A stretch of DNA of 63,950 nt, counting the filler, from Bipalium vagum (lineage: Eukaryota), in assembly GCA_037834085.1 (NCBI GenBank). It is 3 parts of 3 records of this genome, joined end to end, with 100 filler letters (N's around TTAATTAATTAA, not from the genome) between each part and the next. Parts side by side here need not be neighbours in the genome. Positions count along the whole stretch, not along the records: positions 47,342 to 63,950 come from JBBMKC010103171.1; 2 more parts are not named here. One strand, 5' to 3'. The notes under the pieces were generated by a model. That model did no database searches, was not told the origin of the DNA, and saw only the letters and a program-made list of their open reading frames with translations. The position numbers were made by a program, and so were the translations under genes. Shown here piece after piece: positions 9,940-61,825 of this stretch (positions are counted from its first letter, which is position 1; the number at the start of each line of letters is the position of its first letter).

Positions 9940-12028
9940 AACTTCATTTTTATCGGAAGCTGTATCTATCGATGATTTCCAAAAAATTGCTACACTTGGT
10001 GTCGGAGGATTTGGGAGAGTTGAACTGGTAGGATTTCGTTTTACAGTTATACTGAAGCTGACATTTAAATATTAAACCAGGTCAAACTAAAGAGCGACGA
10101 CTTGCAATCATTCGCACTAAAGAAACTGAAGAAAAAGCACATCATTAAAACGCGACAGCAAGAACATGTAATGAATGAAAAAATTATCCTATCGGTCATT
10201 AACTCTTCATTTATTGTCCAGTATTGGTTTATTTTGTTTATTTTGTTATATTTTGTTTATCACAATATTACATATATATATTAAACATAATATATTCTAA
10301 TGAAAATGTGAACCACCTTTTCACAAACATTTATAAGAATTTCTAATATTATATTATGCATAAAATTATACTATTATGTTGTTCCATAAAAAATGCCGCC
10401 TATGATTAAAAAGTTTCAACAGTTTTTTTAGCAAGACAAGATTCACGAACGCAAATAAAATCCATCGTTTTGACAAACAACAGTCCAATGTTGTGCTACA
10501 TTTAGATTCAACTTTTATACCATTCCGCAGGTCTGGAGTCAAAAAACTTCATCAGTTTCTCGTGAAGAGCTTTTTCATTTGCAAATCACCGTCATCAGAG
10601 AAAATGTGATATCGAGAGAAAAAATTTCAAGTCAGACGCTGTGTTGACTGGATTTGGAAATATTACAATTCCATCAAGGCTATTGATTGTTGCTATTGAT
10701 TTCCCTGAAGTAAAAAGCTTTGCGTTATCTCCTTGTAATAAAACCTTCCGATTGATTAAAGGAGGATATTTTGTTGTCATAACTTTATGCAATCTCTTCA
10801 ATTGTGCTGAATAAATGTCCGAACTTAAATTACATGATTTGTATGTCTGTATGTATAAGCACCTGGCAAAAGTTGAAAGAATATTCCATCGCAATTCCAG
10901 AAAAGGAACAAGACCTTTTTCCAAATCGCTGTGTTTTAGGACAAGAAAGAGACTACTCGTTTGTAGATAACCATTTATATTTTGTGTTTGGATTATTAAC
11001 AAATCCCTCTTTTCATAGATACGTATTAGCAATCTTTCGGAAAAAATGGTCATTCCATGGTTTTTGTAATGTGACTTAAAAATTTCAAGCCGTTTGACTG
11101 CCTGACTTTTTGGCAGTTCATAGGGATCGATTCGAGGAGCCCTGTATTTTTTTTCCAATAGAATGAATAGATAATTGTCATATGAGAATATATGATATTT
11201 CCCAATCTCTATATTCATAATGAACATCTTTCTGAATTAGTCTTTAATAAAAGCAGATTAAATCATAATACTTATCTATAGGTTTCTATGCTAATGAAAG
11301 ACTCAAATATAATTTTCACGGGGAAAAATTTCATTAAAAAAATTTTCATTAAAAAATTTTAAATTTATCAAATTTCGGATTAAAAAAAGGATTTTTCATG
11401 TCATTGATAAGGAAGCATATTTTACTATTTTTCATAAACTTTTAGTTTTGTCATCTATCAATAAGTCAAAATCAATGTCATTGGAATTTTCTTTCTATTA
11501 AATTGATTCGATAACTGTCAAATATTACATTTAGTTAAATTTCTCCTAATCATACCTTTCCAAGCAAACTCTAAAGAACCATAATATAGCATTAATCAAA
11601 TGCTCGAAATTTGGTATTACACTTCATATATCATGTACAACACCTCTATATAAAATGATAATATTATTAATAGACAGATTTTGATTAAAGTTGTATAATA
11701 TAATGAACACTTGGCTGTTTTTTGTATGTTCTTGAAAATGTTACTTAATTGATTATAGTGGTACACGGATATTTTTGTTTTCTAGGTAATTTGATATTAT
11801 ATAATAATTATTATATTATTATATTATAATTGAGAAACAAACTTTGGTATAATATAAAGATATTTATTATTATTATTAATATTAATATTTTTTTATGAAT
11901 CTTGTGCTGAAACTTCAAAAATAATTTATTTTATTTAGACTTTACAAGACTTTCAAGGACGCAAAATATCTTTATATGCTTTTGGAAGTATGCTTGGGAG
12001 GTGAATTGTGGTCCGTTCTCAGAGATAT
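9940..12028 (+). CDS. PRKG1: cGMP-dependent protein kinase (PKG), partial: three kinase N-lobe exons
   Basis: Exons 9940-10027 (..[19 protein letters not shown]; alternative acceptor at 9920), 10081-10220 ([37 protein letters not shown]) and 11939-12028 ([29 protein letters not shown]). GT-AG introns with compatible phases. No cNMP-domain or catalytic-loop exons found in the window. Confidence 0.88.
10376..11310 (-). mobile_element. Degenerate mariner in PKG intron
   Basis: ORF 10595-11227 has decayed motifs (RIDPYEL ~ [40 protein letters not shown]). TIR-like start near 10376. Confidence 0.75.
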
Positions 12029-14077: not shown

Positions 14078-15229
14078 TATGGTGGCTACTGAAAGACTGA
14101 ACGATGTAAAAAAACTTTTACCAAAACGTGTATTTTTAATTTTTATTATTGTATTTATAAATATAAGTTATGGAGTTATTTCAGGATTATGTATGGAAAA
14201 TCACATTATTCAAATGGCAACCACTTTGTTGCTCACGAATACAGACTCTTTTCAGTGCGTTTTCCGTGGTAGTTTGTGAGGTTTCAGATCTCAAATTTCG
14301 GATTTCAGCTTGAATGTTAACCCTAAGATCATAGATGGTCTTAGCTTTGTTTATGTAAGCCATGTCTTTCAGATTTCCCCACAAAAAGAAATCCGGAGTC
14401 GACAAGTCAAGTGAACGTGGAAACCAATTAAATTCTGAATTTTTAGAAACTATTAGTTTACCGAAATTTTCTCTGAGGATTTTCATTGCTGCTTTGATAA
14501 TGTGCGCAGTAGCTCCATTCTATTGATTTTCTTGGATCGCTGGATGTAAAAACATTTCAATCATTGTCCTATACCGAGCACCTCATATGGACCAATAATT
14601 CTGTCAGCCATAACGCCGCACCAAACAATGCATTTTTGTGGATGCAATTGATGATGGTGTAATTCTCTTGATTCAATTTATCCAGAATCTGTTGTTTTTC
14701 TTGTTGATGCAACCATTCAAACAGAAATGAGCTTCATCACTCATCAAAATGTTCAAAAATTGATTTTCAACTTTGGTCATTTGCTGAAATTGGATAGCGT
14801 TCTGAAAGCGCTGATGAGTATCCTGGGTTTTCAAAGATTGAACCATTTGAATTTTGTAACGGAACAGTAAGGGAACGAATAGATATATATGGATCCTGAA
14901 GTACACTCTGCTGTACACATTGCACGACTGCGTCCGACAGGTACTTTTTCCGGTAAGATCTGCAACTGATCCAGTATTTTCAAAACGAGCAACTAGGTCC
15001 CGAATCGTGTTTTTAAACATTACATTAAAATATATCCGATATCATCTTTGTGTTAAAATAATAGACTTATCATTCGAATAGAATAACTCTATTAGTTTTA
15101 CTCGTTGTTGAATATCATATATACTCAATTTAAATCTCCAAAGGATGCTTAATATCTAAAAAAATTTTAAAAATCATTATTATATTCATTTTTAAATTAT
15201 TTTTAAATAGTCTTTTAGTGGCCACCCTG
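14078..15229 (-). mobile_element. Tc1/mariner-superfamily (maT/DD37D-like) transposon, disrupted
   Basis: Imperfect TIRs TATGGTGGCTACTGAAAGACT / AGTCTTTTAGTGGCCACCCTG. ORFs give RFENTGSVAD, ILMSDEAHFCLNG and WFPRSLDLSTPDFFLWGNLK. Confidence 0.9.
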
Positions 15230-15837: not shown

Positions 15838-17036
15838 CATGGTGCCCCAAAAGTCTCCGGTGAAGTAGGCTTTGATGTTTCTTATGCAGTTTGAGCTATT
15901 TAACGACTTGTTTTATAAATTGAAAGACAAATCTTCAAAGTTTATAATAAAATAATTTACAGTAATTGTTTAAAATGACTACCACTAACTGAAATACATA
16001 AACTCGTTCTTTTTACAATATTTAAAAATACAAATTCAAAGATTCTCTTATAATACTTTTTTTTCTTCAAAGATCTATGTTTTCAAATGTTCAATATTTT
16101 TAATTTCAGATTTGAAAACTTTCTTCTTAAAATGGCCTGATAACCAGAAGTCAACAGATGTTAAATCTGATGATCATGGAGTTCATTGGACCACTTCTTA
16201 TGAACCATTTGGCTGGAAATTGATCGTTAAGATACTGTCGCACATCTTTTGAAAAATGTGCAGGAGCTCCATCTTGCTGAAATATCAAACACCGTACTTT
16301 GTGCAATTTTCTCACTTTAAAAATGAAATGGTATTGAAGTATTGATAGATAATTTTGGCCGTTTAGTCTCACAATCGAAGAAATAAGGACAGATAATTTA
16401 ATTCCTTGGCAATGTACACCAAACATTGTCTTTCAAAGATTTCATGAATCTCAGAATTAACATATGAATTAGTTTCTTTCCAATATCTGATGTCATTTTT
16501 ATTTATTAATCCGTTATCATCTAAAAAGAAAATATTTTTTTGAATATCAACATTTTCTAAAATCGAGATCAGAGTTTGTAACTTCTCGTCTTTGTCTTGC
16601 GAATCTTCATGTATTTCTTTTGTTAAATGAAATTGATAAGATTTCAATGACAATTTTATAATTCTTTGTGTTTTTGTTCGTGAATTGGAGTAGGTGGATC
16701 ATTTTCACTGATCACCTTTGGTCTTCCAGAATATTCTAGGTATTCTACTGATACAGTTTTCAAAAACAATGAAAGGTCCCTCAAACTGCTTTCACTCAGT
16801 GCGTTTTTCCCTAATTCAGTATATAATTTTTTTACCACGCATTTTGACTCGAAATTGGCCATTAATAATAAAAATTTTATTCTGATGTTCATAGGAACCG
16901 CCATTTGCTAACTCTAATATTAAAATAGAACTTAACCTTACATACTTCAATATTATACAAATAAAAAATTCAAGTGGATTGAATTAAATGAAAAATATTT
17001 AGATTTACTTTTACCGAGGACTGCTGGGACACCTTG
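15838..17036 (-). mobile_element. Tc1/mariner-superfamily (maT/DD37D-like) transposon, disrupted
   Basis: TA on both flanks; ~28-bp imperfect TIRs (CATGGTGCCCCAAAAGTCTCCGGT / ACCGAGGACTGCTGGGACACCTTG). Three broken ORFs with YSGRP, FQQDGAPAHF and YLNDQFPAKW. Confidence 0.9.
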
Positions 17037-22400: not shown

Positions 22401-25400
22401 AAAATTAGAAAAAATGTACGCAGCATTTATCAATAGAAAAGGTCCAATTCTATTGCATGACTATGCCCGTACTCACATGTGAACCAAACCATAGATAAGC
22501 TTAAAACCATAAATTATGACATTTTACCCCATCCACCGTACTCGCCCGATCTCTCGCCAACTGATTTCTATTTATTCAAACATTTACAAAATTAGATAAT
22601 TGGAAAAAGATTACAGAACGAAATGGTGCTAAAAAGAGAATTTGAACAGTTCATTGTCTCCATATCTACCGAATGGTTAATCTACCAATTTGTTATCAAA
22701 AGCGTGTAAATCACATGGGTTTTTATTTTAATCAATAAACCTTTTGTTTCGGCTAATTTATACTGTTCAAAAATGAAGGTAAAAAAACGTGATAAAATTT
22801 CTGAACCTAATATTATGCTCAGGAAAACTAAGAGAATTTTGAAAGTAATAAACTAGATTCGGTAAATAGAGAGAGCCATTCCTATCAAAACAACACACAA
22901 TCAAACTTAAAAAGAAAATTTAGAAAATTAAAAAAACATGATTTGGAACTTTTACATAACTTCAATACAATCTTAATCTTCCTAGTACTACTACTTGTTT
23001 CAATCAATGTAGCATTGGAAAATTTAATACTTATAAAGCAATAAAAATTGTTGTCTCGATTTATTTGATTTCAGACAGTGTGGTTTTAACAAAAATGATG
23101 TTTTGTTAATGGAATTACATTGTGGAAAGAAACAAACGTTATTTCTTTCATTATTGTACCTATTCTGTGAAAGATTTTTTTAGTTAAAGTTTTTCAAAAT
23201 AAGTTATTGTTTATGAGATTGTCTTTTTTTTAAAAATGCAAACAGCAATAGTCATTTTTTTTCTTATCAATACTTTATATTTGTTCCATTTTAAACCCAT
23301 TATCATTACAAAAAGAAAGGTAAAATATTAAGATTTATATTAATTAAAAGATAAAAAAATTATTTTTATTTATTTTTGGCAATTTAAGATAATGGTGAAT
23401 TCTTCATGAAATATAGAACAAAACATTAGGTAATATTTTTAAAAGTCAATTAATATTATAATTATAATTATAAAAGTATTTTAATAATATAATTAAAAAT
23501 ATTTACAGTCAAATTTTGTTCCCATGCCATATAGCTACTCTGCCACTCAATATTATTCCACTTTACTAGATTACGACAAAATTAAATACAAAATAAATTT
23601 ACTGTACCACCTCGGACTCTCGCTACTATACCACTATTCTGTGGCTGTTAAAAGACACGAATCGTGAAAAGTCTGTATTTTTGTGTATCAGGATTAAGCA
23701 CACAATGCTCTCCCAAATAACAACTACACAAGACAACCACAGCACATACAGCGACAAGTCTTTAACTGAATCTCATAAAAGACACAAAAGCGCGAGCTTA
23801 CATAAACACTCGCACAAAGTCTTTCTTCCATCGACTATTGTCAAGAGATGAAAAGTGGATCTATTTTGAAAATTTCAAACGTACCAAAGCATGGGTTAAC
23901 CAAGGTCAATCATCAAAACAAACTACAAGACCAGACCCCTTCGCAAAGAAAACAATGCTCTGCATCTGGTGGGATCAGCATGGCGTGGTGTACCATGAGC
24001 TTCTCAAACCAAGGGAAAGTGTTAATTCAGAGAAATACCAAAACCAAATAGCCCAGCTGAATCAGTCTATAATAGTTAAACGTCCAGAATAGATCAATAA
24101 ACATGGCAAAGTAATTCTTCTACATTTCAACGCAACGTATCACACTTCTAAAGCAGTTAAAAGTGTTGGGCTTACCCAAAACACCCACCTGTCACAAATG
24201 AAAATTGTAAAATTGTTGCTCAAAATAATAAGAATAATAATTATAACTGTGAAATTGTGCACAAGATTACAAAAATAATAATCATAATAATAATACTAAG
24301 AATAATAATTAAATAATAATTTTAGCTAATTAAAAAGTAAAAAGTTAATTAAAAAGGAAAAAAGGCAATAAATTATTTTTTAGGATCCAATCTTGACACT
24401 GGCGAACCTAAATTTCCAAGATTAGATCAGGGTCCACAAGTAGGGACCGATTTAAGATTAATGATCCTAAAAGAGAATAGACATTTCCTATAAATAAAAT
24501 TGGTCTATGACTGATTAGTCGTCGACCAAAATACTACATAAGGAGAAGAATTTCCCCAAAAATTCATTGAAGAAGACTGTTATTCATTGACGGAGAAGAC
24601 GGTATTGACAAGGAATTCATCATCGTTGAAATTTACAAACAAGTAATTATGTATTCCATTCGTCTGGGATTTTGTGTGAGTTCCCCACCAGAGAGCTATT
24701 TCTGAGCAACTGTAAAGGCTCAGCTAATAGTCCGGGAAGCTTAAACGAAGATAACTCGTAAGCTTATTCCATTTTTTTATTTATCTTAATTTTATTTTTG
24801 GTTAAACCTTAGTAATTTGATTATATTATTTCATAATTATTGATTAACTTTAAGTATCCATTTGTTTTTCTTGACTCGATATTATTAACTGTTGTGTTTG
24901 ATTGATTATTTAAGACATTTGCAGACATTTCAGATCCTATTGTGATTTCCTTCTCTTGAGTTTGACGATTTTGTGTTATTGTTATCATTGTGAGATTTAG
25001 TGTGAAGTTTGTGTTGTAAATACAAGTTATCGCTTCTCTAATTGTTATTATTTTTGCCTAAGAGTTGGAGTCAGGTTTAATCTTTGATACACTAGTTAGT
25101 GAACAAAAGCATGATAAAAGATATGAAATGTGAAGTACTCATTCTCCTTCCGATTTTCACCTGTTCCGTTCAATGGAACATGGACTTGCTGAACACCACT
25201 CCAAATCTTACGAAGATGTCCAAAATTGGGTCTCTGGATGGTTCGCCTCGAAACCAGAAGAGTTCTTTTTGGGTGGCATCTATAAATTGACTGAAAGATG
25301 GAAGAAATATGTGGATAACAATGGCCATTATTTTGAATAAATTAATTTTTATTTTTGTTTCAAAATTACCATGCTTCGGTTATGAAAAAATCCGCATTAT

Positions 25401-28400
25401 TTATTTGTACCCATAATAAATAAGTGAGTAGTCAAAGAAATAATTACCATACAGTTACATTGGTTATAATACTAACATTTATTATTTACTATTTTTACTA
25501 TTATTATAGTATGAAATATATTATATATATTTCTTCAAAGTGTAATTTTTATCTTCTTTAAAAGTGCTTAAATCTTCATTTATTCATATTCTTTCTTTAA
25601 GAGGAATTTATTAAAAATAATCTTTTAATATTGAAAAAAATTTTCTCTTTGTGGAAAAATTATAACACTTTTGACTTATAAAATAAATTATTATATTATT
25701 TTGATAAAATGCATTTCATAGATTACCTTTTCCCCTTGAAGTGACTCCATTGAAAATCGTAGAAAATAAAGACATTAGAGTATATTTTGAAGCCATTGAC
25801 TTTTTAAATTAATTTTTATACTTTTAATTAAAAAACTTTTAAAATTAGATGAAATGACTTTCTCAAATCTTTAGACGAGAAAATTATTTGGCTCTTCCCT
25901 TTGTCTTTTGATAAATATCTTTTTGTATTTTTAATGTCTCAGTCACCATTTGTAGCTATTGACAACTCAGATGTGGGTGACCAAACAAGAAATCATAAAT
26001 AAGAATTAGTACAACTCTAAATCTTTGATGTTTCGAAAGGAAATTCCAAATAAAAAGCATTCCCCAATTTGAAAACCTTCGAATAACAATTTTATTAAAT
26101 CCTGGACCAAGAACGCATATTAAAAGTTGTTTAAAAAAGTTATGCAATGTATTTATAATTTAGTTCTAGAATGTATCAACGAAGGCGTTGACACATGAAA
26201 AACTAAGTTTAGAAAAACCGGAAAGTAGTAATTAATCGAAAACCTGATGAACAAACAAAAATCACCTAAATAAAGTTGAGCCGTCTTAAAAGATGTTGTC
26301 ATAAACAAAGTCAGTTGTCATTTGATAAAAAGCGTTTATTTGAAAAATAAATAAATAAAAATATGTAATATTAATAATATTAATAAATAATAACAATAAT
26401 AATCATAATAAATCTGTCGGAATTTATTGCAAAATGAAAAAATTTAAGATTCAATTATGATTAAACTGAACTTTTTGGGAATAAAACCGAAAATAGCTTT
26501 AAAAAAATTACCACTCTCAGCTTTCCGAGATCGTCGAAATATTTGCAAACTGGCAGTGTATTGGATTTATAATTGACAATTCGTTGAGAAATTGCCATAT
26601 TATTGTGGTCTCGCCATCCTTCTCTGAAAGGCCTGGAAGAAATGAGTTTGTGACAAACATCCTCGTCACAATCTACTAAGATCATAAATTTTACTTTGTC
26701 CATTCCGATCTAGAACAAGCATTTGTCAACACACAACAAACCGGAACAATCCTCAAACCAGTTTCACAAAATCCTCCCTTTCCTTTAATGTCCTCGGATA
26801 ACCATCAATGAGAAAATTCTGTTTGTCCGCATGCTTGTTTAATTCTTTGAGAAGTATTTCTAACATCAGATCCTAAAACAAATTCAGGTACGTAATTGTT
26901 AACTTGTGAAATTAATTTTTAAAAATTTAATTTAAAAATGAAAAAATAATTTAATTAAAATTTAATATTAAATTCAAAAATCAAATTATATCTTGCCAAT
27001 ATTATTTTCGTAGTAGGTTTTATTCTCCCTTTTCTGACCCTTTGCCTTTCATAAGATACTTTAATTAATTTTATCCTAAAAAGGTCTCTTTTGAATTCGA
27101 ATTTATTAATTAAGACGTAAAAGTATTTTTTTAACATCGTAACACTATAATGTTACATAAATGGTGACATTTTGCTGTTCAGATTTTAATAATTTAAAAT
27201 CTCCGCCAACGGCTGTTCACGTGATCATTCATTTTGTAAAAAAGATCAAATGCGCTCATATTCGAAAATTCAATTCAGATTAATTATTAAACCCGTTTTG
27301 ACAATGTAAGTCACATTCAAATCGTTGATAAAATCAGAAATTAAAACTAAGACGGCTGAGAGATTATAATTTATTATTATTCTCGTATTTAATTTGAGTT
27401 AATTTTATAAAATTATGTTAATAAAATTATAAAATTTATTAATAAAATGTTATTATTATGAGGCTGATCAGACCTGGGGAATTTTTTAATTATTTAAAAT
27501 ATTTAAAAAGTATTTATAATGAAATTTTAAAAATAAACTTATTTTTAAAAATTTATTTAAAAAAAGCAATTTTCATGTCTGAGAAAACTTGTAGTCCTGC
27601 TGTGGTCGCCATGTTAATATCAATCGGTTTATTCTCAGAATTAGAAGACATTTTTTGAATAGATTTATTAAGTAATAAAACAAATAATATTTTAACAAAT
27701 TTTCTCAGACCTGGAAATTCTTTTTTTATTAAATTTTCAAAAAAAATTTATTTTTAAAATTTCATTTATACTTTTAAATATTTTAAAATATTTAAAATAA
27801 TTAAAATAAATAATTAAAAAATTCCCCAGGTCTGATTAACCTCCTGATAAATATTATTTGTTTTATCACTTAATAAATCTATTCAAAAAATGACTTGCAG
27901 TTCTGATTATAAACCGATTGATATTAAAATTATTATTATTATTATAAAATTTAAATTATAAAATGTTATATTTCATAATTGGAACTAATTAATCATAAAA
28001 TTATTCTTTTTAAGAAAATTATTCTATTGATTGTGTCCTCAACATTTTTCTATCCAAATATAATCATACTTCATTAGATTCAATTTCTAAAGGAAATTGA
28101 ACTCTGTCCTCATTAATAAGCGAAAATAATTCACAAATATAAAAGTACTGCTTAAGAAAGAAAATATTTTGTCAAAAATTGAAATCATAATTAATTGTCA
28201 AAATATCTTAATTGAATTTTTTCAACAAAGATTCATTTGCTCATAATAAATGATTGACTGTTGAAATTAATTAACAATTTATGTCACAATTTTAATCGGA
28301 TCGCATCTGAACACGAGATAGATTAAAAAGGAATACCAGATAAATAATATTTATAATATTAATATTACAACAGTCTTATCAAATTACAGTGAAAAAAAAC

Positions 28401-29855
28401 AATTCAATTTATTACAATATTTTTTTCTTATTAATTATAAATAATTTAAATATAAAATTAATTTTAAAATCATAAAAGAGATTGTTGAATATTTCGCCAA
28501 TTAGAATTGTATAAAATTTAATAAGTAATAAAAAGATTTATATAATAAAATAATTTTAATTTATTAATAAGAAATTTATCAGGCTTCCACTTTAAAACAG
28601 TATCATTTCCGATCCATAAAACCATTTTTTTGAACCACAAAACTTTCCTTTAATCGTTTGACAATCATCAGATCAGTGTTGGACAGTTTTAGATTGGAGA
28701 AGACTGGAAAAATACTTAAGATTAAAAAATCTATACTTAGGCCACGGTTCAGTTTGATCACTGAGTGTGCCTTATTAAAACTGATATTTCTTGTATTATA
28801 ATTAACCGTTTAAAATGACAAAACAATCAGTCAAATCATTTATGACATTTTTAAAGTTAATTTAAAAAAAGTCATAGAAAATTTTTCTTCCATTTGTTGA
28901 TCATAAATCATTTTATAATATAATTTTAATTTTAAAAATAAATCGAGAATTGAAAATTATCTTTATAGGGTTTTTCATTGTTATATATGCATAGTTGCAA
29001 AATTATATGGGCATTTGTTTTTATTTAATTTTCATTATCGCTGAATAATATATCAACCGTAGAAAAAGAACAACGATAACGCATGAATTGTATTCAATTG
29101 TTATAAGAATGTCCACTAATGAAGCCACAAAAATTTTTCAGATTGTAGAAGCTACTGGTTTACAAAGGAATACAATAACGAAAATAATAAATAATCAAAG
29201 AAATAGCATTGTAAAATAATTATTCTCAACTTAGTCTTACATCTGGAGCTAAGTTTCCTTCGTTGATAATTTCGGAAATTCCCCTCCATTTCGATTTAAT
29301 ATTTTTTGTTTCCAGACTTGCTCTTTCCCGAATCATTGAGCCAAGTTTAATATGATAAAATTCTTCAAATTTTGCAGAAATATTTTGGCATATCTCGTTT
29401 TTGCCCAAACCAGGACCACCTTGCACAATCACAATTGTTGAATTTGGTGAAATTTTCAACTGGAACGATCCAATTTCAGGTAAAACGTCTGGTCTGAAAT
29501 CTTCTAAAACTGTCGGTGCTGCAGAAATAGGAGGTAATGGTGGTTTTTTAGATTCCAAAAACATATCCCAATGCACAGCATTGACACCCTGTTTCTTGAT
29601 TTTCTCCAGACACTCTTGTAAGTAATTAATGTAATCCACTGGTCTGTGGTACATCAGTCCAGTCATTAGGCACTAAAACGTTTAAATATTTCAATTTCAT
29701 AAATATTGTCGTTAATTAAACAATATTTATATACATATCTGTCAATTATTAATAGATATTTATTGAATTACTTCAAATAACTGTGGAATTTCATTTTTGG
29801 ACAGATAGTCTTTAGCACATTTAGCGGTTGTTACACTTTTTTGCTGGACCTGCAT
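19491..29855 (-). CDS. AK5: Adenylate kinase 5-like (N-terminal dimerisation/docking domain, AK domain, start of second AK domain), 3' partial
   Basis: Exons 29855-29772 (MQVQ..AKDYLSKNEIPQLFE), 29672-29241 (CLMTGLMYHRPVD..GGPGLGK..GNLAPD), 26872-26759 (..FLIDGYPRT..), 26709-26512 (..DDLGKLRV), 19789-19717 (IDADGQD..) and 19670-19491 (..PQCEIILLLG). All GT-AG and phase-compatible. The N-terminus resembles AK5 AKEYL...EIPQLFESLL.GLM. Confidence 0.9.
20040..20750 (+). mobile_element. Non-LTR retrotransposon (LINE) reverse transcriptase remnant in AK5 intron 4
   Basis: Motifs in order: SFIDIPNAFGRV (FID..KAFD.V), IEVKKGVRHDWPLSMLLFN (GVRQG.PLSP.LFN), LLAYANDL (YADD). Stops and frameshifts present. 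Confidence 0.85.
21559..22810 (+). mobile_element. Full-length but inactivated mariner (DD34D)
   Basis: TA-flanked TIRs (TTAGGCTGTTCAGAAA.. / ..TTTCTGAACCTAA), 1.25 kb. Motifs LVPQELT, ITCDEKW, LLHDYART, HPPYSPDLSPTDF, with stops. Confidence 0.92.
23817..25416 (+). mobile_element. Mariner 3' half split by a solo LTR
   Basis: SRDEKWIYFEN..TMLCIWWDQHGVVYHELLKP..HTSKAVK | SMIKDMKCEVL..SDFHLFRSMEHGL. Right TIR-like end ..CCGCATTATTTATTTGTACCCATAA. Confidence 0.88.
24164..25105. mobile_element. Solo LTR (942 bp), probably Ty3/gypsy type
   Basis: TGTT..AACA termini with 4-bp TSD AAAG on both sides. Removal restores the mariner frame (gtt aaa agc atg). A second inverted partial copy lies at 59855-60372. 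Confidence 0.85.
27455..27927. repeat. Two nested, oppositely oriented copies of a ~230-bp AT-rich interspersed repeat
   Basis: Layout A(27455-27590), B+A'(27612-27850), B'(27850-27927). An uninterrupted B+A' copy lies at 46965-47193. Confidence 0.85.
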
Positions 29856-44491: not shown

Positions 44492-45313
44492 CTACCCTGC
44501 TTCTGGATGTTTAATTAATTCAATTGCCTCAACCAATTGTTGTTTTAATTGATCATAGTTTTTCTTCATAAATATAAAATCAATTTCAAACTTTTTTCTC
44601 AACGTTATAAGTTTCTGCATTTCCCTTTCCTGAACAGCATCAACATTAGCATTTGCCTCAACAAGTCGCACCTTTAGCTCTTCGATTTCATTGAGTAAAC
44701 TTTCATTAGTTTTAGAATAATGAGTTCGATTTCTCTGTCCTCTTAATGTTTTATTCATACCGTAAGCAACGTTGCTCTCATATATTTGTCGAATTTTAGC
44801 CAGAGATAAGTTCAATTCGGAATTTACTCGACTGAGCAATAATCCTCGTTCTGTACATTCAATAGTCACTTGTCGAATTATTTCTTTAAATAATTCGCCA
44901 AAAAGCTTCCTCCGAATTGAGCAAATACCCGTACTTTGAGCTCCTTTAAGTTTCAGTTCTTGATTCAACTTTTCTTGTAGATGAATCATGTCAAGTGATT
45001 TTCCAGGACAACTTGAAACATCTTGAATGAACAATTCTTTTCCCAGGCTTATAATTCTTGGTTCAATTATCAAACTCAAAATTCTTTCTATTCCCAAGTT
45101 ACAAGTATCAGGTTTCTGAGTAAATGTTCCTGTACAATTGCGACTAAGAATTCTATCTCTTGCAGTGATAACGTTTCCTTCAGTCAAGTGGGTAATTTTT
45201 GGATTACCATGGGTTATAACTCGATTGGTGCTGTGATACTGAAGAATGCTGTCAACAGGCTTTGGAATACTTGAACCTTCGTCAGTAAATTCTGGTTTAG
45301 TTTCTTTTTTCAT
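44492..45313 (-). CDS. DNALI1: Axonemal dynein light intermediate chain (p28 / inner-arm) homologue, intronless and divergent
   Basis: 273-aa ORF with ILSLIIEPR, VSSCP..LDMIHLQEKL, TGICSIRRKLF, IIRQVTIECTERGLLL.RV, YESNVAYGM.K.L and a C-terminal coiled coil, the p28 family pattern. Confidence 0.9.
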   Translation of the reverse strand: MKKETKPEFTDEGSSIPKPVDSILQYHSTNRVITHGNPKITHLTEGNVITARDRILSRNCTGTFTQKPDTCNLGIERILSLIIEPRIISLGKELFIQDVSSCPGKSLDMIHLQEKLNQELKLKGAQSTGICSIRRKLFGELFKEIIRQVTIECTERGLLLSRVNSELNLSLAKIRQIYESNVAYGMNKTLRGQRNRTHYSKTNESLLNEIEELKVRLVEANANVDAVQEREMQKLITLRKKFEIDFIFMKKNYDQLKQQLVEAIELIKHPEAG

Positions 45314-46029
45314 TAGAAATTATATACTACCTATAAAATATTTTGTTTCATAAATTTACCGAAGACAAAATATTAATGAGTTCAATAATATAAAATAGAT
45401 TTATCGATTTCAAAGGGTTTACTACGAAATAAAAGTTTAATTAATTAAATTTCATCTGCATCACACACTTATATCTTACTGAAACTCCCAACTCATACAA
45501 AAGTTATTTAAATTCTTTAATTTCATTAATATTATTCCATTATTCAACATATCTATTATTTATTAAAAGATGTATAACAAAATGTAAATTCAGTCAATGT
45601 AATGCAAATAATGTAATTTTTGGGCACCACTATGACCGAATATTTTGCCAAAATTATAGATGGTTCATGAAAGCAAGTCAATATTTAATTTTATTAACAA
45701 AATTTTTGGGTGCCTAAGGTACAGGTTTCACTGTAAATAATCTTTCAAAATTGCACAATTTTTATCTTTAAAAATCACAAATCACTTTATCTTAAAAGAA
45801 TTTTCATTGGCAAATTAAGTACCAGTTTCGTTATTTATATAAAAATAATTGGCGCAAATGAACACATCTAAGACTTCCACAGATGTCTACACTTTTGTAA
45901 AAAGGTTTTAATGATGTCATAATTGTGATTCAATCTCACCAGTGAGATGAATAAATAGTTTAGGAATCGATTGTTGATTGTTTTTAGACTTTATTTTCTA
46001 TTATTTATTAAAAAGTTCACTATTTCTTG

Positions 46030-46860: not shown

Positions 46861-46964
46861 AATGAAAATATTTTTATTCATAAGGAAAATTGTATGACTT
46901 ATAAAGAATTTTTAAAAACGATGTAATTTGAAAGGCTATATTTTACTCTCATTGCGTAAACATT

Positions 46965-47193
46965 ATTAATATCAATCGGTTTATAATCAGAATTAGAAGT
47001 CATTTTTTGAATAGATTTATTTAAGTGATAAAACAAATAATATTTAAGCAAATTTTCTCAGAACTGGAAATTCCTTTTTTATTAAATTTTAAAAATAAAC
47101 TTTTTTTAAAATTTCTTTTATACTTTTTAAATATTTTAAAATAATTAAAATAAATAATTAAAAAATTCCCCAGATCTGATTAGCCTCCTCATA
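46965..47193. repeat. Intact copy of the ~230-bp interspersed repeat also at 27455-27927
   Basis: Shares TTAATATCAATCGGTTTAT..CAGAATTAGAAG..AAAATTCCCCAG.TCTGATTA.CCTCCT. Confidence 0.85.
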
Positions 47194-47241
47194 AACATGA
47201 CATTCTTAAATTATTTTTTATTTATTAAAAAATATAGATCG

Positions 47242-48283: not shown

Positions 48284-49595
48284 TTTTTCATTTACACATG
48301 GAACTAAGAGTCCCATGGTGAAAACGGATAGTATGGGTCCACCAGCCATGCCGAATAGGCTCATCGATATTTGAAGAACGGTCGGAGAAACCAGAGAAAA
48401 GATAAATGCGAGAAGAATTGTGATCAAACCGATACTGAAAGCTAAACGGAAAAAAAACTTAATGTAAACTCATTTGTTATTGTTATTATATAATATAAAA
48501 TTAATTGGATAAGCTTCACAGATACATTTTATCTTATAATTTATTTTTTTCACAAAAAAATCTACTACCAATTAGTTTCAAATGAAAATCCACTCGATTT
48601 TCTGAACCTCCTGGGAGATGAATAAATTTTCGACATGAGTTCAATAGATCTTCCATAATAACCGCGGATAAGCTGTTGATTCCAGAAGACATTGTACTAA
48701 ATAAAACAAAGGCATTAAAAACTTTCAAGTAAAATGTGAAAAGATAACCTCAATGCTGCTGCAAAGATCGAAGACATAAATAGTCCCGAAAGCGGAGAGT
48801 AATTTTGTAACAAATGAATCACAAAATATGGAAGTATCTGAGTTTAGACTGATTTATGAAATCAACATATCATTCAATACCTGATCTCTTTTGCTAATGA
48901 TTCCTCGAGATAACGGATCACAGAATATGAGAGAGGAGTAAGTTACTAAGCCTGCTGTGATCAACAAGAAAAAGAATCCGGATGTCAAAGGTATATTTAG
49001 AAGCAAGGCTCTGAAGTTCAATATTAAACATTTTAATGCGGAATCCTGGATTAAAGTAGACTCCTCATTCGAAATGATAAAGTCTTCCATGAAATTACAG
49101 GCTTTAATCTTTTATAAAACATTATTTATTATAACAGGTATCTCAAAATCAGGGGTACAGCGTGTTCTCGAATCTAAATTAAATTTCTTTCCATACAAAA
49201 AAGATATGAACATTATGTTCCACCTTCTGCACTTGACACGTGAAACATTTCTGGAGAAAGTTGAAACATGCACTGAATTTTTGGACACAAATCTTTTCAC
49301 AGACGAATCTTCCTTCTACCGGAATGTTCATCTTAATAAGCAGAAAGATAGAGGTTTGTCTCAGTGTGAAGATGACATCGACCTTCAACTCGAATTCCTT
49401 ATAAACAATATCCAAAATAACTTATCGTGTGGGCATGATTCTCTTCAAATTTCAAAATCGCACCTATCTGTTTAAAGCAAAATGTTACTACTAAAAGTTA
49501 TAAGGATATGGTTGAAACTTTCTCTCCAAATAAAATTTGGAAAAGCCGTGTAATCAGTTGGGGTTTTTCATTTGCTTGGTTATGTTATTCTCAAG

Positions 49596-52645: not shown

Positions 52646-52707
52646 GTTGAAATGTAACTTTGAAAACCAAAGAAATTAATGATAAAGTTTGCTAACTTTG
52701 CACAAAT

Positions 52708-52742
52708 AATTTATTGATTAGTTTAAACAAATATTGTTTATT
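52708..52742 (-). promoter_or_regulatory. Conserved 35-bp upstream element of SLC5 paralogue 1
   Basis: Reverse complement AATAAACAATATTTGTTTAAACTAATCAATAAATT is identical to 61724-61758; 62 nt before the ATG. Confidence 0.65.
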
Positions 52743-55159
52743 GATAAAATTATTGTGAAATTTAATTGGAAGCCTTAGATTGATAAAAAGTATTTTAATT
52801 TTATCAGCAATGAATTTAAAATAAAAATTTTATCAATAAATAATTAGGTAACGCTAAACAGAAAATTTTTGTGCTCAAAAAAATTAATACAATTTAATAA
52901 CTAACTTGAGCCATAACTGTTTTTAATATAAACATAAATGAAATAAAATTTTGAAAATATAATTAACATGTGCATATTTGTCATTTGTTACACATCTCTA
53001 TATGTTCCCTGGACCGAAGTTCCAAGGTTTTATTATTGATTATTCTTGACTAGACATTTTGACCGTCAATTTCCCTAAACCTCTTTGGATGGCCATTATT
53101 AACTTTGAAATATAGTTAAATAAGTTAGTACAGTTCAGTAACTTTACATCGATCATCTCACAAGAAAAAATTTTTTTTAAGGTTTGAAAGAAAATAATAT
53201 TAATATTAATCATAAAAATAAAAAATAATTAAAATAAAATATAAAAAAAATTTATTAAATTTGTTATGTATAAAATATACTAAGTTGTCCCTTTATGTTC
53301 GCTGATATTTCCTCCTGAAGATAAATATTTTATCATTATAAAAATAAGTTTCNNNNNNNNNNNNNNNNNNNNNNNNNNNNNNNNNNNNNNNNNNNNNNNN
53401 NNNNNNNNNNNNNNNNNNNNNNNNNNNNNNNNNNNNNNNNNNNNNNNNNNNNNNNNNNNNNNNNNNNNNNNNNNNNNNNNNNNNNNNNNNNNNNNNNNNN
53501 NNNNNNNNNNNNNNNNNNNNNNNNNNNNACGTTCAAGTTTGATTGTCATTCAAAGATATCAACAATTCTGATCCAACATGACTGTCCGAAGTAGATAAAG
53601 ATACCATTATTGTCGGAATATCTAATACCCCAGAGGAGCTGTGCTCGTCATCGTTCACCAAAGTTAATTTTAGCGTTTATAACGATTTTCCGGCTACTCA
53701 AAAATTGTATTTTGACCTTCTAACAATAAAACGTATATGCTACCTCCTACCAAATTTTTTTAATGTATTTTAATATCAAAAAGTATACGACATTAATCCT
53801 TTCACTCCAAGTAACACGTATCCCTTTATTTAGAAAGAATTTACTTTATTATTATCATGTTTATGTAGGTCAAAGATTTTAGTTTCGCTAAAATTAACCA
53901 AATGACTTAGTGAACAGTTAATATAATACAGGACATACTGAGGTGCAAAGATATCTCATGTCTCAATAAGCAAGTGGTTTTAAAGTTAAACACTATCTAA
54001 CAAATTCCTTAGCATTTGTTTCATTAAATCATGTAGTTATATAATTAATCGCAATGCAAATTTTATTATAAACGGTCTGTGGCATTATTAATTAAAATTG
54101 AACAAAATTATTTAAATTCCTTCGTTGTCACCTTTTTCAATTAAATTTTAATCATTAATGCAAATTCGGCTTCATTGTTAAAATTGAACCAAATTCCAAA
54201 ATTAAAGTAATTGTAATAAAAATAAAAACTGTCATTAAAAGATAATAATAACAATGATAATAAATAAAATGATAAATAATAAAAAATAATCATAATAAAT
54301 AATAATAGTAAATAATATTATTATTCTTATTAATAATAAATGTATTGTGCAATGTAATTTTGTTAATGTTAATTTTTTTATAATCAAATAATATTTGTAA
54401 TATTTGTTAAATTCAAGAAAAATTATGTTACAAACTAATATTATTATAATATAGTTAATTTTAAAATTAAAATAAAAATCTAAGTTACGTAACCATAACA
54501 ATAGAATTTTAAACAAAATATAAATTATCTCATTTTCATTATTATATGCACTTGTATTTGTTTTTTGTTGTTTATTTTTTCTTTGTTAAATTAATTTCTT
54601 ACAATCCTTTTAAAGAATTTTTTCTATTTTTGATATTATTATGAATTCCTGTTTAGGATTCTGTTATAAATAATTTGAAGTCAACTAAATTTTAGCACTT
54701 CTTTTTGTCAATAAATATTTATTTAGCATTATCAATTCTTCTTGTCAACGTTAATTTTTACATGTTAAAAATTAGCCTGTCATAAAATTGTAAAGATTCA
54801 AACATTTGTTAAATTTTTTTGATTAGAATAATGTTATGCTGTTCCATTATTTCATTTTTACATTTTTACTTAGTTATATTAATACATAATTTTAGATTAT
54901 GCTTTTCAACTTGGGTTTTCAGTCATTAAAAGTATTTCTTCAAAATATTTTCATAAACATTCAGTTTTATTTAAAAATCTACTTAACATTTTAAAATAAA
55001 ATATTCAGAATTATCATTTCCAGGTTTTGAACTGATAAATATTTCTTCGAATGAAATTCCGTATATCCAGTCAAAACCATCTATACTGAATTTGTTTTAG
55101 TTTTTAATTGAAATAAATTTAAGATTTATGTTTTTTATATTATGAATTTTAGATATAGA

Positions 55160-55810
55160 TAGAAATTTTAGGGTTTAATCGATGATTGCGGTACATTTTT
55201 ATTGGAAAAAAATGATGAATTTTCTAAATCAATTAATAAATAAATTTATTATGAAATTATTAAAATAAGATTATATTGATTACAACAATTTATTTTTTTC
55301 GAAAACAGTTTTTCTTCAACCAGCATTAAAATATATTTATAAGATTGTTATAATTATGGTTTCTCAAAAGAAGAAGTTTTTCAATTATTTAGAAATAAAA
55401 TATAAATTTGACGAGGAAAACTATGAATATAAAGAAAGACAAATAAAAGTAACTATCTGATAAAGTTAAAGAAACTTAACCTCCATATAAATTAAACAAG
55501 CTAGAATTTATTTAATTATTTTTGATGATGTAAAAAATCAACATATAACGGAAATGTATTTCACAAGAGGAAGACAATAAATGTTCCTTTATTTATTTAT
55601 CAAAATCATTCTTTGATTTACCTTTAAGTGGTATAAGAAATAATACAAATATTTTAATGTTATTTAAACTATCAAAATCAGATAGAGATCAAATATATTC
55701 TAAAATCTTAGCAAGTTTTGTGGAAAAAGTATTATTTTGATTATTTCTACAATTTACATATGAGAGAAAAATATAAATATTTTTTTATTAATTCAGAAGA
55801 AAGGATTCTG
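55160..55810 (+). pseudogene. Polinton/Maverick-like DNA-packaging ATPase (A32/FtsK-HerA type), decayed
   Basis: Fragments in order: NFRGLI, DYIDYNNL..SKTVF.QP, GFSKEEVF, LIIFDD (Walker B), MYFTRGRQ (arginine-finger region), CSFIYLSKSFFDLPLSGIRNNTNILMLFKLSKSD. Walker A eroded; stops and frameshifts. Confidence 0.82.
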
Positions 55811-55902
55811 AGGGTGCGAGTACAATTATATCATCGCCATTCTGTGAGTTCATGTCCGATTTGAGCAAATCTTAAGAGAAGCTTTTCTCAAAACGATTAA
55901 AA

Positions 55903-56880
55903 ATGTCTAAATTAAATTTAGATAAAACTTACTATCATCAATATTTAACAACTACAAATGTGACTATTTAGAAAATTTTTAAAATCCTAATACTGCAACA
56001 AGTATAAGTAATAATGTAATATCTAACTTTTTCTTTATGACAATCAGCAAATATTTAGGATTTATCAGAAGCTATTATAGTTTTTTAAAATTCAAATTCA
56101 AGATGTAAAAGCTGAGGAAAATATATAGTTGCAAAATAATTGCTTGCCATACTTATTTACTAATACTACTTTAAAATTAGGTTCAAATGAAATAGAAACA
56201 ATAAAATTTAGGTTAGGAGAATTAACATTTACAAGAAGATGTGATATTGAAAAAGAAATATTTTATGGGCCCAAAGGAGACGCTAAAATAAAATTACTTG
56301 ACTTGAAATTATTTATTCCAGAATTACAATTAAATTCTTCATTAGAATTAAATATTTTTTCAAGAATAGATCATGGAACATATATAAATATAAATTTTTA
56401 ATATTGATATGTGAAGAAGGAAATTTAACATAAGGAACTACCCAAACATTACAATTTTAAAATGTATTAAATAAAAAAATTTATATTTTTATGATTTTTA
56501 AAGAATCAGAATTTAATTTTAATAAAAATAATAATTTGTTTATTTAAGATAAAATTAAATCTTTAAGAATACATGGTGAATATTTTTTAATATCCATTAA
56601 ATTCTAATCAATGTCGAAAATGGAAAAAAATGAAGTTATTCTTATTATGTAAAAGCGTGTAAATATTTAAAAACTTTTATTCACTAAGTTTATTTGAATT
56701 TCAAAATTTATAATCTATATTTTGTTTTGATTTAAAAGATCAAACATGAAATTTATTGTTAAATGGGCAGTTGTAACGTTACATATTGTAAAAGATTCAG
56801 ATTTTAAAGGAAAAATAAATGTTTTTTTAATGAATCTATTTATGGAAATACAAATAATAGGAGGAAAAATGTTTAAGACT
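55903..56880 (+). pseudogene. Double-jelly-roll major capsid protein-like gene of a Polinton-like virus, decayed
   Basis: MSKLNLDKTYYHQY.., LQNNCLPYLFTNTTLKLGSNEIE, KIKLLDLKLFIPELQLNSSLE, YIFMIFK..NNNLF..KIKSLRI, SIFCFDLKDQ follow the motif order I recall for invertebrate Polinton-type DJR capsids. Adjacent to the ATPase, same strand. Confidence 0.68.
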
Positions 56881-58809
56881 TAAACAAAAGTTAGGCGAAA
56901 CCTCTGAATGAAGTTGTCAAGATTTTTACAAAACGAAGTTGAGTCTCTTGATATGAAGTTGGTGTAGCCTTCCGATACGAAGTCAAAGTTGAACTTGAAA
57001 TAAATATCTAAAATATACAAACTTAGCAGCAAATTTGGTTTATTCGATATTCGATATTGAAAAAATCGAAACAAAATTTATTGGTTTGTGTGTTGGTCGG
57101 AAGTAGCAGATTCTTCACTACTGACCTTCAACATTTATTTAATTAAAAGGACTAGAAGTTATAAGAATTTCAAATAAGGTAATCAAATTTTCTTTTCATC
57201 GAAAAATGTGCCTTTGTTTTCAATACGGCTTTAACGATTCTCGACATTCTCTTTATAAGATATTTAAATTTAGATGAATCTAAGTTATTCCATTCACATT
57301 CCAATATACCACAGAGGTGTTCTGAGAACGTCAATTTTTAGAAATCCGAAATCGTATCCGCGCTAAATCTACCATTGTCATTTTGGGGACCTTATTTAGT
57401 CATAAATATGCAATAAATAGCATCTTGGAGAATTAGGACTTGTGTGCATCAAAAATAGAATTTTTTCGTATGGATATAGATGTCTTTCTACATTTTGCTG
57501 AGGTATATCTAGAAAGACTTTGATTAATTTATAACTTTAAAGTTTTGTTTCAAAATGTGCAATTTTTTCATAGAATAAAAATACTTCGCATTTTTGATCA
57601 TCAAAAAAGTTTTTTTCAATTTACGCAAAAATCGAATCATCTGAATATTTTATATGTATATGTATATGACTATCTAACTTTTTTTTAAAATTTGCTAGTA
57701 TTTAATATATTAAATGAAAAAGTGATTATTTTAATGATTTTAAACAAAAAATATATGCCAGTCATACGGAATTTCTTCAATTTAAACAAACCGTTAGAGT
57801 TAAAATGATTTCTATTTTATTTCAAGAAAGAATAACATTAATTTAAAAGAAATGTGATCATTTTTCAATATATTTTTATTTATATTGTGATATTTTAAAG
57901 AACTGGTAATTAAAAAAGAACACATTTTATTTTTTAGAATTATTAAATCAAAATAATTTAGGTAATTTTTAATTAATAAATAATTTTTTAATTTATCACA
58001 TTTGATCAAAATTTATTTAAAATAAATAAAAAATTCCTTCCGTTGGATATTTTGTTGATCAAAGCAGAACACTTTGGAGATATACTTTACTGGCTGGTTT
58101 CCGAGCTATTTGTTTGAAGGAATTTTATATATCCTTTAACTTTGAGATATTTTTAGGATTCTTTCCCGGGTATTTTTTCTAATTCCGGTTCTGTATTATA
58201 TTAGCTTTGTATTAATGTGCTCTTCAATAAATTGAGTAGCAAAACAAAGACAATAATCCATTAGCCTCGACAAGAGACATTTTCGGCGTAGAGACCAATC
58301 TCTACGACTATAAAGGAGACGGCTATTCCCGTTAGCAGCAGAGCCTCCATAATTTAACAAAACAAGAGAAAAGGGTTATTTGCGACGAAAATTACTCGAA
58401 GAAGATTTTTAACCTCAACGCTATCCAGATTACTTCCGAAGAAGACGAGAGCCGGGTACCGGCCGAGGATGATCTTGGTAATTTTCTATGCAGAGAGATT
58501 GTTTTTTTTATGATGCAGTCGAATTTTTACAAGGAGACCCAGCGAGCTTAAGAACCCCTAGGTGACTTGAGAAGGGCGTAGAGAGTGACCAGAGTACCCC
58601 TCGTCGCTCTTGGTGAGACCGATTCATTAATTTTTGTTTCATTCTCGATTTTTATTTGTAAATTATTATTATCAATTATTTATTCGATTTTAGCATTAAC
58701 GTAATCGTTGAATTTAATTTATTTTACTCTTGATAAAGTTTCGATTTGGATTTAACGATTTAGAAATTGTAATTGTTGTGGTAAAGCAAATAAAGTTTTG
58801 AATTTTGAA

Positions 58810-58814
<5 letters not shown>

Positions 58815-58854
<40 letters not shown>

Positions 58855-58856
58855 AT

Positions 58857-58885
<29 letters not shown>
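58815..58885. repeat. (TAT)n microsatellite, interrupted
   Basis: Read directly; source of the poly-Leu ORF. Confidence 0.93.
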
Positions 58886-58891
<6 letters not shown>

Positions 58892-59296
58892 TTGAAAAAG
58901 TTCTTACGGATGCGGATACAGTATAGTGGTGGGTGTTTTAAATTCGAAAATATTGCAAGGAGTTACGAACACAACGATTTAGAAAAGTGAGGAGCACACA
59001 AGCACACGTTACTGTCTAGTTAAAATAGTAACAAAAGAAAATTTCGTTTAATAACCCAGTAAACTGTTATGTATTTATTCATTTAATGGAGTCGAAGAAT
59101 CAAAAGATAATATAAATTTAATCTATAAATTTTAATCTCAAAAGGAAAACATATTAAGATCAAATAAAAGTTACGTTTATTCAACTAAATTAAATCAATA
59201 TATAGAAGAAAACAAACAAGCAGAATCAGTTTATAATTTTAAAAATGTTAAATCAATTAGAATCGATTTATTTTAAAAAATTTAGTAGGATTATTG

Positions 59297-59854
59297 CTAG
59301 GTCGTTCGAAAAGTCCCTGGCCCGAACATGAAAAAACACTAATAGTAAAAAATTGCAAACATAAATGAAAAGTGCATTTTTTTTAAACTTCGAAATTCTA
59401 AATTTTAATTCAATTCATCAATTTGTTTAAATTACCCACTAATATTAAAATTAAATACTCGATTTTGACTTTTTAGATGGAAAACGGTGAATTCCGCACA
59501 TTAATTAAAGATTATTTTTATTAAAGAAAACACTAAAAGCAGCACAAGAAAAACTGGATAAATATTATGTTAATTCGGGTCCTTGGTAATAAACGTAAAA
59601 AAATTGAATCGCTGACTTTAAACGCGGTATTCCAATTGAGATAGTTATGCTTGAGAACATTTAAAAAATCCATGAGCATATATGAATGATTGAAAAATCA
59701 AAACATGCAAGTTATCTAACTTTGCAAAAATTTCAGTCATTTTGTTACGAAAATGATTCATGATGAATTGGAAATGAAGAAAATTAAAAATTATCAGATT
59801 GAGCAAAGTGCCTATATCATTATAAAAAAATATGTGGTTGTTAAAACACAAAAC
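59297..59854 (+). mobile_element. Mariner 5' remnant, irritans (Himar1-like) subfamily
   Basis: From ATG 59477: MENGEFRTLIKDYF..AQEKLDKYYVNSGP resembles Himar1 MEKKEFRVLIKY... TIR-like GGTCGTTCGAAAAGTCC. Truncated by an LTR copy. Confidence 0.7.
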
Positions 59855-60372
59855 TGTTCACTATTTAGTGTATCAAACTTTAAACCTGACTCCAACTCTT
59901 AGGTGGTCCAAAAATAGCAACAATCAGTAAAGCAATAACTTGTATTTATATTCACATTAAATCACACTGATAACAATTTCACAAAGTGTCAAACTCAACA
60001 AAAAGGGGGTCACAATAATATGTAAAATGTCTGAAATTGTCTTAGGTTATCAATCACACACAAAAAGTTCAATAAAACCGAGTCAATTAATTAAAACAAA
60101 ATAAATATTTAAAGTTAATAAAAATCAATTATCAAACTTGAATAGTAATTAATATCAAATAATATTACAAAAATAATTAAGATAAAAAAAATAAAACAAG
60201 CTTATGGGTTAGTTTCGTTCAAATTTCCTGGACTATCAGCTGAGCCTTTACAGTTGCTCAGAGATGGTGGGGAACTTAAACACAGACTTAGGCAAATGGA
60301 GTACATAATTACTTGTAGATTAATTTCAATGATAATGAACTATTCGTTAATACCAATACAGTCTTCTTCAAT
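59855..60372. mobile_element. Partial inverted copy of the LTR at 24164-25105
   Basis: TGTTCACTA..TAAACCTGACTCCAACTCTTAGG..AGCTGAGCCTTTACAGTTGCTCAGA..ACAGTCTTCTTCAAT is the reverse complement of ~24565-25105. Confidence 0.85.
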
Positions 60373-61723
60373 TATTATTATTCTTATTATTTTTTGAAAA
60401 ATTCCACAATTTTTATTCGTGAAGCGTGGGTGCTTTTGATAAACCAAATAACATTAAGATCAGCCTTTAACCATATTTGTCTGAGGTTTCTTGATAGCCA
60501 TGGATATTCGTATTGTTTTATTTTGATAATATTGAGAAATATAATTAACCATTTACTTTTTAAACTATTTATTGTTTAAAATTGTTTTTTCTGAAATATC
60601 TATCTTTTAAGAAGTAGTCTAACTGAAATGGAAGTCAGTTAGAGATGAATAATGAGTATCATAGATGCCGCAGGATTTATTAACAAGACTTGTTCTATTT
60701 TTGTGGTGTCAGTTTTGAATATGCAGTCGAGTGTTATTGTGAAACAAAATCAGTTCGCTGATTAGATTCTCAGTTTAAACTCAATATAATATAATGTAAT
60801 CAATTATTTTCAGTGTTACTCTAACACTTTCATAATGACGTCTTAAATTAAATAATGATTACTAAAAATCAATTAATAAAAAATGGTTTTAGTAAAATTG
60901 ATTTTTAAAATGTGTTTACAATTATCTGCACTCATCTATCACAATGTCTTATATAAATGTTTAAATGTGTAAATAATTAAAACATTTTACAGTTATTATT
61001 GTTTTAATTAATTAAAAATTTATGACTTTTAAAGGGATTAGATTTAATGGTAACTTTATATAAAAGAGAAATAATTTTAGAATGTAACTTAAATTTTTCA
61101 GGTTTATAAAGAAATAGTTAAACATGTGATTTTGCGAACTGAATTTTGAACAGGAGATTAGTTTTCGAATAGAAGAATGCTTAGACTTCATCTTTTAAAA
61201 CCGGGATGTTGACTACTACGCGATGATGATAGAAAAAAGACTGTATAACTTTGAAATTAACAGTTAAACAAGGAAAACGTTTGAAGAAGAACATCATAGA
61301 CGAGAAGCGATGATGTTGTAAAAACAACATCTCTTCCAACTGAAAAGAAAAATGAAGTACTTGGATAACCACTGTTGACCATTTATTCTGCAGGTGAGCT
61401 CCTCTATTTCCATCATTGTAATCATCTCTGGTTTACTGATTCAATACCATCAATTCAGGGTCATCGGAATCGTGTTTATAAATAAAGAATTTTTGAAATT
61501 TTATTTATTAAATAAATTTTTTTAAGAACATATTGATTTCTTCATATAAATCAATAAATCATAATTATTTTTAAATTTTTAATTATCAAATTTCAAAAAT
61601 TTTAGAAATTAAGGAAAATTTTGAAGTAACTATGTTGTTTTTTATTGCAAAATTTTAAATTAAAAATTATTTGATTATTTGAATTAAATTACTCATTAAT
61701 CAATAACTTATCGAAATATTTGT

Positions 61724-61758
61724 AATAAACAATATTTGTTTAAACTAATCAATAAATT
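61724..61758 (+). promoter_or_regulatory. Conserved 35-bp upstream element of SLC5 paralogue 2
   Basis: Identical to the reverse complement of 52708-52742; 67 nt before the ATG. Confidence 0.65.
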
Positions 61759-61825
61759 GTTTCTACAGAATTCACAAACTTTGTTAAAAATCTCTTTATT
61801 TTCGAAGTAATTTTAATATTTCACT

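Follow-up and report, generated by a model that had tools for sequence, protein, structure and literature searches.

A relic of a virus-like transposon was identified in the genome of Bipalium vagum. It very probably consists of the broken packaging ATPase and double-jelly-roll (DJR) capsid genes of a Polinton/adintovirus-type element, accompanied by a 100 bp scrap from another capsid copy, and is likely to be the inert leftover of a germline insertion by a multicopy family. The identity of the genes, their lesions, their position between two SLC5 genes, the absence of other core genes from the window (the whole 63,950-nucleotide stretch of DNA analysed, filler included) and the many related contigs in one sequencing run were observed directly. 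The locus cannot now encode either protein. The features are listed in Table 1.

Table 1. Features of the relic, in positions of the window.
Feature	Position	Strand	Evidence or placement
Inverted scrap of second capsid copy	54658..54758	-	DNA match to 56218-56324
Broken A32/FtsK-HerA-type genome-packaging ATPase gene	55239..55810	+	Frameshift-tolerant alignment, protein/Pfam search
Spacer, ~90 nt	55811..55902	.	Between ATPase gene and capsid gene
Broken double-jelly-roll (DJR) major capsid gene	55903..56883	+	Alignment to L059 capsid, Pfam

Locus and genomic setting

The relic is located in the 9.2 kb that separate the start codons of two head-to-head SLC5 genes (starts at 52645 on the minus strand and 61826 on the plus strand), where a reading of the sequence alone had placed it. 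The base composition at the relic is 20% GC and 42-44% A, and the spacer is GC-richer than both genes (35% over 55830-55910). As the ATPase homology ends at about 55804-55810 and the likely capsid start codon lies at 55903, the gap measures about 90-100 nt. The description of two co-oriented, decayed genes about 90 nt apart in A-rich DNA is accurate. All of the motifs that had been named were also found in place, occupying 55515-56734 in three different plus-strand frames: IIFDD (55515-55529) and YFTRGR (55557-55574) in one, IYLSKSFF (55591), IRNNTN (55633) and MLFK (55657) in a second, and NNCLPYLF (56135), EIE (56189), KIKLLDL (56285), IPELQL (56315) and IFCFDL (56717) in a third. The two SLC5/SSF genes (Pfam SSF) are inverted duplicates of each other, with about 80% similarity across the exons and nearby sequence.

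ATPase pseudogene

A single frame of the first gene, written with X at the stops, returned one protein from a search of 1.84 billion proteins (P0002; E = 3.2e-9). P0002 is a Pox_A32 ATPase (E = 3e-11) with 653 relatives. Of 120 such relatives, 108 matched the window at E<1e-3, all at 55.1-55.8 kb except for 13 poly-Asn matches. In a frameshift-tolerant alignment the intact protein P0004 shares 115 of 181 residues (64%) with the window over 55257-55804, interrupted by 2 stops and 6 frameshifts. Against P0002 the gene shows 4 stops and 5 frameshifts, so that the lesion count varies with the query (2-4 stops, 5-6 frameshifts). The alignment score was 469, compared with a maximum of 61 in 132 control tiles and 35 for the reversed query at matched parameters. 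The assignment of the first gene as an A32-like ATPase is thus supported both by the database match and by the controls.

The start of the gene, previously set at 55160, fared less well. The N-terminal 50 residues did not rise above background (89-165 of 274 tiles scored equally high) and a Walker A motif (GxxxxGK[ST]) was found in no frame at 55100-55300; a start at 55160 is hence not demonstrated, and an extension of the ATPase remnant further upstream to about 55150 is unproven. One unchanged frame of the gene clustered with P0002, P0003 and P0004 with a support of 1.0 in a FastTree phylogeny of 178 sequences, all of them unnamed proteins. These three are the closest ATPases and are all unnamed singletons. 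A word-index protein search with two short open frames gave nothing, which by the tool's own statement is weak evidence.

Capsid pseudogene

The open frame at 56129-56398 alone matched the Pfam family DJR-like_dom with E = 0.0014, at 18.4 bits versus a curated cut-off of 27. A comparison with 2,004 frames taken from 132 related loci gave matches to the capsid region from the capsids of loci L059 and L060 only. Residues 20-439 of the 444 in the L059 capsid align to 55926-56874 with 120 of 306 residues identical (39%), 6 stops and 5 frameshifts, and some 90 residues from the first half of the protein are missing from the window gene near 56200-56250. At matched parameters the alignment scored 223, against a maximum of 56 in 110 control tiles and 43 for the reversed query.

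The evidence for the DJR fold comes from the intact relative L059 and not from the broken gene in the window. The L059 capsid itself matches DJR-like_dom with E = 4.5e-28, and its predicted model (pLDDT 68, pTM 0.74) matches the capsids of iridovirus, Sputnik, PBCV-1 and mavirus (E ~1e-13) as well as MELD-virus and adintovirus models. For this relative an Atlas search returned a DJR cluster (0.98), although recognition fell short of the threshold set by the tool; for the capsid frame of the window it returned only leads below 0.9. The Pfam and model matches, together with the alignment controls, uphold the assignment of the second gene as a DJR capsid. The sequence-only reading had named the lack of any match to A32/FtsK-HerA ATPases or jelly-roll capsids as evidence that would count against it; both matches were found and the reading survived. 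Capsid scans of IMG/VR gave no matches, and sequence searches of solved structures and of NCBIfam were uninformative. An IMG/VR match of 19 residues on a phage-like contig (L001) was judged to be due to chance.

Missing genes and termini

Profile searches of the window gave no match to pPolB (best E = 0.66, with a polymerase profile built from one protein) or to rve integrase. At the locus there was no profile match to penton, protease, pX or one unassigned protein, and the best match to the protease profile in the window lies at 37 kb (E = 0.011). The seed proteins of two of these profiles carry the labels penton and protease, which we take to be correct. Within 52700-61800, only low-complexity inverted pairs were found in the search for terminal inverted repeats (the 25 longest of 1058), and no AG/AGT end motifs bracket the locus. 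The profile and inverted-repeat searches thus agree with the earlier inspection of the sequence, in which neither pPolB, integrase and protease nor terminal repeats could be identified.

With no polymerase, integrase, penton, protease, pX or terminal repeats found in the window, the genes that define a Polinton are unseen. As polymerase, integrase and terminal repeats are lacking here, the locus is classed as a Polinton/adintovirus-type fragment rather than as a demonstrated member of the family. Comparison with its relatives and with published elements suggests that the parent was replicated by a protein-primed polymerase, was integrated into the germline by a retrovirus-like integrase and had its DNA driven into a jelly-roll capsid by this ATPase. 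The remainder of the element would since have been lost through deletions, further insertions and point mutations.

Related loci

Loci with related ATPases were drawn from metagenomes (80) and from IMG/VR (52); the contigs of the closest ATPases, P0002-P0004, are not among them. An rve integrase is present in 33 of the 80 metagenome loci, most of which are short; among the 20 loci of 5 kb or more, 15 carry it. The same 80 loci contain a PLA2 domain in 30 cases, a capsid in 19 and pPolB in 1. Locus L059 carries a PLA2-integrase, a capsid, an Adeno_PX-like protein (E = 0.0009, under the cut-off) and the ATPase. In L059 and L060, the closest capsid-bearing loci, the capsid stands head-to-head with the pX-ATPase block. 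Gene order varies widely among the related loci.

Ten related proteins (L055:296-1609, L057:241-1557, L059:148-1470 and 7 more loci) are fusions of a PLA2 domain with rve integrase; in other related loci the two are separate genes. Two contigs from bacterial MAGs in GTDB (L134 and L135) encode ATPases 32-33% identical to P0002 and are possibly mis-binned viral DNA.

Copies of the family

Two sequencing runs, X1 and X2, contain the stretch with shares of 0.69 and 0.09, respectively; X1 may be the source sample. Summed depth over both genes was 2,352-23,520 per bin versus 20-24 for locus-specific contigs, where summed contig depth is not equivalent to copy number and the low-complexity bin 54106-54456 also reaches 9,476. 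At single sites, up to 73 contigs in the ATPase gene and 111 in the capsid gene share a reading that differs from that of the window. These data suggest a large number of related copies, with identities of 80-95%. With dozens of related contigs in this run the family is likely to be multicopy, and the relic is likely to be one dead copy of a family with many related copies in the host animal. Further repeats of high X1 depth are located to the right of the relic at about 57150-57290, 58310-58700 and 59855-60260, the last of which matches 24601-24793 and 25057-25105 of the window in inverted orientation.

Alternatively, the ATPase-capsid pair may be the central part of a compact non-autonomous derivative, or mini-Polinton, which multiplied in one piece by using the polymerase and integrase of a helper. 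An ATPase followed directly by a co-oriented capsid, as seen here, occurs in 0 of the 20 capsid-bearing related loci, which would set this locus apart; gene order is so variable among the relatives, however, that the adjacency may simply be the order of an autonomous family. In favour of an amplified unit, depth is high over both genes and drops to 132-209 just upstream, at the inverted capsid piece, yet no terminal repeats that a target-site duplication might flank were seen at the locus (the 25 longest of 1058 inverted pairs). One X1 contig (depth 443, with 48 letters on its short side; among 15 of 454 joints) joins 55783 to 55896, which is a weak hint that the two genes are also adjacent in other copies; by this joint, the spacer stretch may be foreign to the family. 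Against amplification as a unit, many joints with differing internal skips (among 15 of 454) fit random decay. On balance, we consider a compact derivative of this kind unlikely.

Inverted capsid piece

The sequence-only reading had allowed for another decayed viral gene at 54500-55120. This region does contain viral sequence, in the form of a capsid-copy piece of about 100 bp on the minus strand, but a different type of viral gene is not demonstrable there. The second copy is new beyond that reading. The piece matches the main capsid gene at 82 of 101 aligned bases, with a score of 131, whereas 100 shuffles reached at most 66 and 74 window tiles at most 67. It has no significant extension at the DNA level, as 38 of 200 and 65-116 of 200 shuffles scored as high on its two sides. 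The capsid-profile signal at the piece reaches 54808 with E = 0.62, which is not significant, and a protein-level test fell within the controls (27.5 versus a maximum of 32.5 of 128). The scrap most likely belonged to another copy, one that is older or more diverged.

A broader scenario would join this piece to the ATPase-capsid pair: an unnamed lineage, that of the ATPase clade P0002-P0004, might have been amplified in this animal to hundreds or thousands of compact ATPase-capsid units, possibly with a second, opposite-facing capsid. Such an element would be either a mini-element that depends on a helper and donates capsids, or an adintovirus with two capsid genes. We regard this scenario as distinctly unlikely. 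Quite improbable, in our view, is a parent that carried a capsid paralogue on each side of its ATPase, with the inverted piece as the remains of the second gene. The inverted DNA match is real, and the head-to-head capsids of L059 and L060 would suit such an arrangement; only about 100 bp is established, however, with no extension on either side and a profile score within the controls, depth at the piece is far below that of the main genes, and no related locus has opposite-orientation capsids flanking the ATPase. Little was found on two-capsid or non-autonomous Polintons in the accessible parts of the literature, which is not proof of absence. The compact derivative and the two-capsid parent are both variants compatible with the main reading of a decayed Polinton/adintovirus-type insertion.

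Comparison with known elements

Polintons are defined by PolB and integrase, and FtsK, hexon, penton and PLA2X genes have been described for them (PMC8502044, accessible text). An A32/FtsK-type ATPase and a DJR hexon are common to the present locus and to the adintoviruses and animal Polintons (Mavericks) of the Polintoviricetes, as far as the available parts of PMC8502044 and PMC11161782 cover these. The nearest relatives of the locus carry rve integrase, PLA2 and an Adeno_PX-like protein, as in the virion module of Alpha-type adintoviruses (PMC8502044, same portion). Unlike adintoviruses, the locus keeps two genes and a scrap, is without pPolB, integrase, penton, protease and terminal repeats, and has its ATPase abutting the capsid. 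The closest intact ATPase and capsid are 64% and 39% identical to the locus, respectively, and both are unnamed proteins. L059, which combines the closest capsid (120/306) with a related ATPase, differs from the locus in being intact, in having its capsid head-to-head to pX-ATPase and in having an integrase nearby. Three motif searches of the supplement text of PMC8502044 gave 0 matches; the sequence files of that paper may lie outside this text, so that a named close relative may exist. The proposal of a possibly undescribed lineage is borne out only to the limited extent that no name has been given to the nearest proteins.

Degraded, highly amplified animal Polintons have already been published and such fossils are common in animals. 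Degraded Polinton copies have been reported across animals (PMC8502044, accessible text). In the part of PMC8097293 available, stops and frameshifts had eroded 96% of 3,511 vertebrate Maverick loci, and discernible terminal repeats were lacking in 2,166; the present locus shows the same erosion and likewise no discernible terminal repeats. Copy number in vertebrates averaged 22 with a maximum of 287 (PMC8097293, same part), compared with which the contig counts and depth found here suggest a larger family. In some assemblies of bivalves, insects and anthozoans, viral regions reach 12-16% according to the accessible portion of bioRxiv 10.1101/2025.04.19.649669; they are assigned mostly to Polinton-like viruses (PLVs) and Orthopolintovirales and are mostly diverged copies. 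The many diverged copies resemble the situation described here.

An origin from a PLV, virophage or giant virus instead of an integrase-bearing Polinton was also considered. An A32 ATPase and a DJR capsid are common to all of these, the fold search returned all of the groups, and integrase and polymerase were not found at the locus. The relatives in IMG/VR are distant, however (27-38% identity to P0002, with one partial match at 52%), and carry rve in 2 of 52 loci and the matching capsid type in 1 of 52, whereas the closer metagenome loci (47-54% identity) include PLA2-integrase-capsid arrays such as that of L059. Such an origin is accordingly very improbable.

That the genes are intact, with the lesions being assembly errors or the sequence contamination, has next to no probability: the window does contain scaffold gaps (one at 53353-53528) and among the contigs listed none spans the whole locus, but identical contigs from X1 (56799-58330, depth 23.6) and X2 (56643-56909) cover the 3' lesions of the capsid gene and the junction with flanking host DNA, and in-frame stops are distributed over both genes in addition to the 90-residue gap.

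Taken alone, the locus matters little: it is dead and fragmentary, and virus-like transposons of this class are well known. Its value is that of a marker. It shows that a Polinton lineage otherwise known only from unnamed metagenome proteins entered the germline of this animal, probably on a large scale, and it provides a probe for counting and dating the copies of the family. Its importance would rise if other copies of the family turned out to share the direct succession of ATPase and capsid or the second capsid.

Other features of the window

Five frames, at 10598-11236, 14187-15041, 16151-16698, 23766-24092 and 48942-49475, resemble, by their motifs, remnants of Tc1/mariner transposases; a Pfam transposase match was absent in the two of these that were examined. 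A long, apparently intronless frame at 44495-45319 on the minus strand matches Ax_dynein_light (E = 8e-48) and is possibly a retrocopy or a divergent paralogue. An adenylate-kinase-like exon (ADK, E = 9e-5) is located at 29229-29672 on the minus strand. Two related copies of a small MITE-like element with an 82-nt inverted repeat are located at 27450-27935 and 46960-47200.
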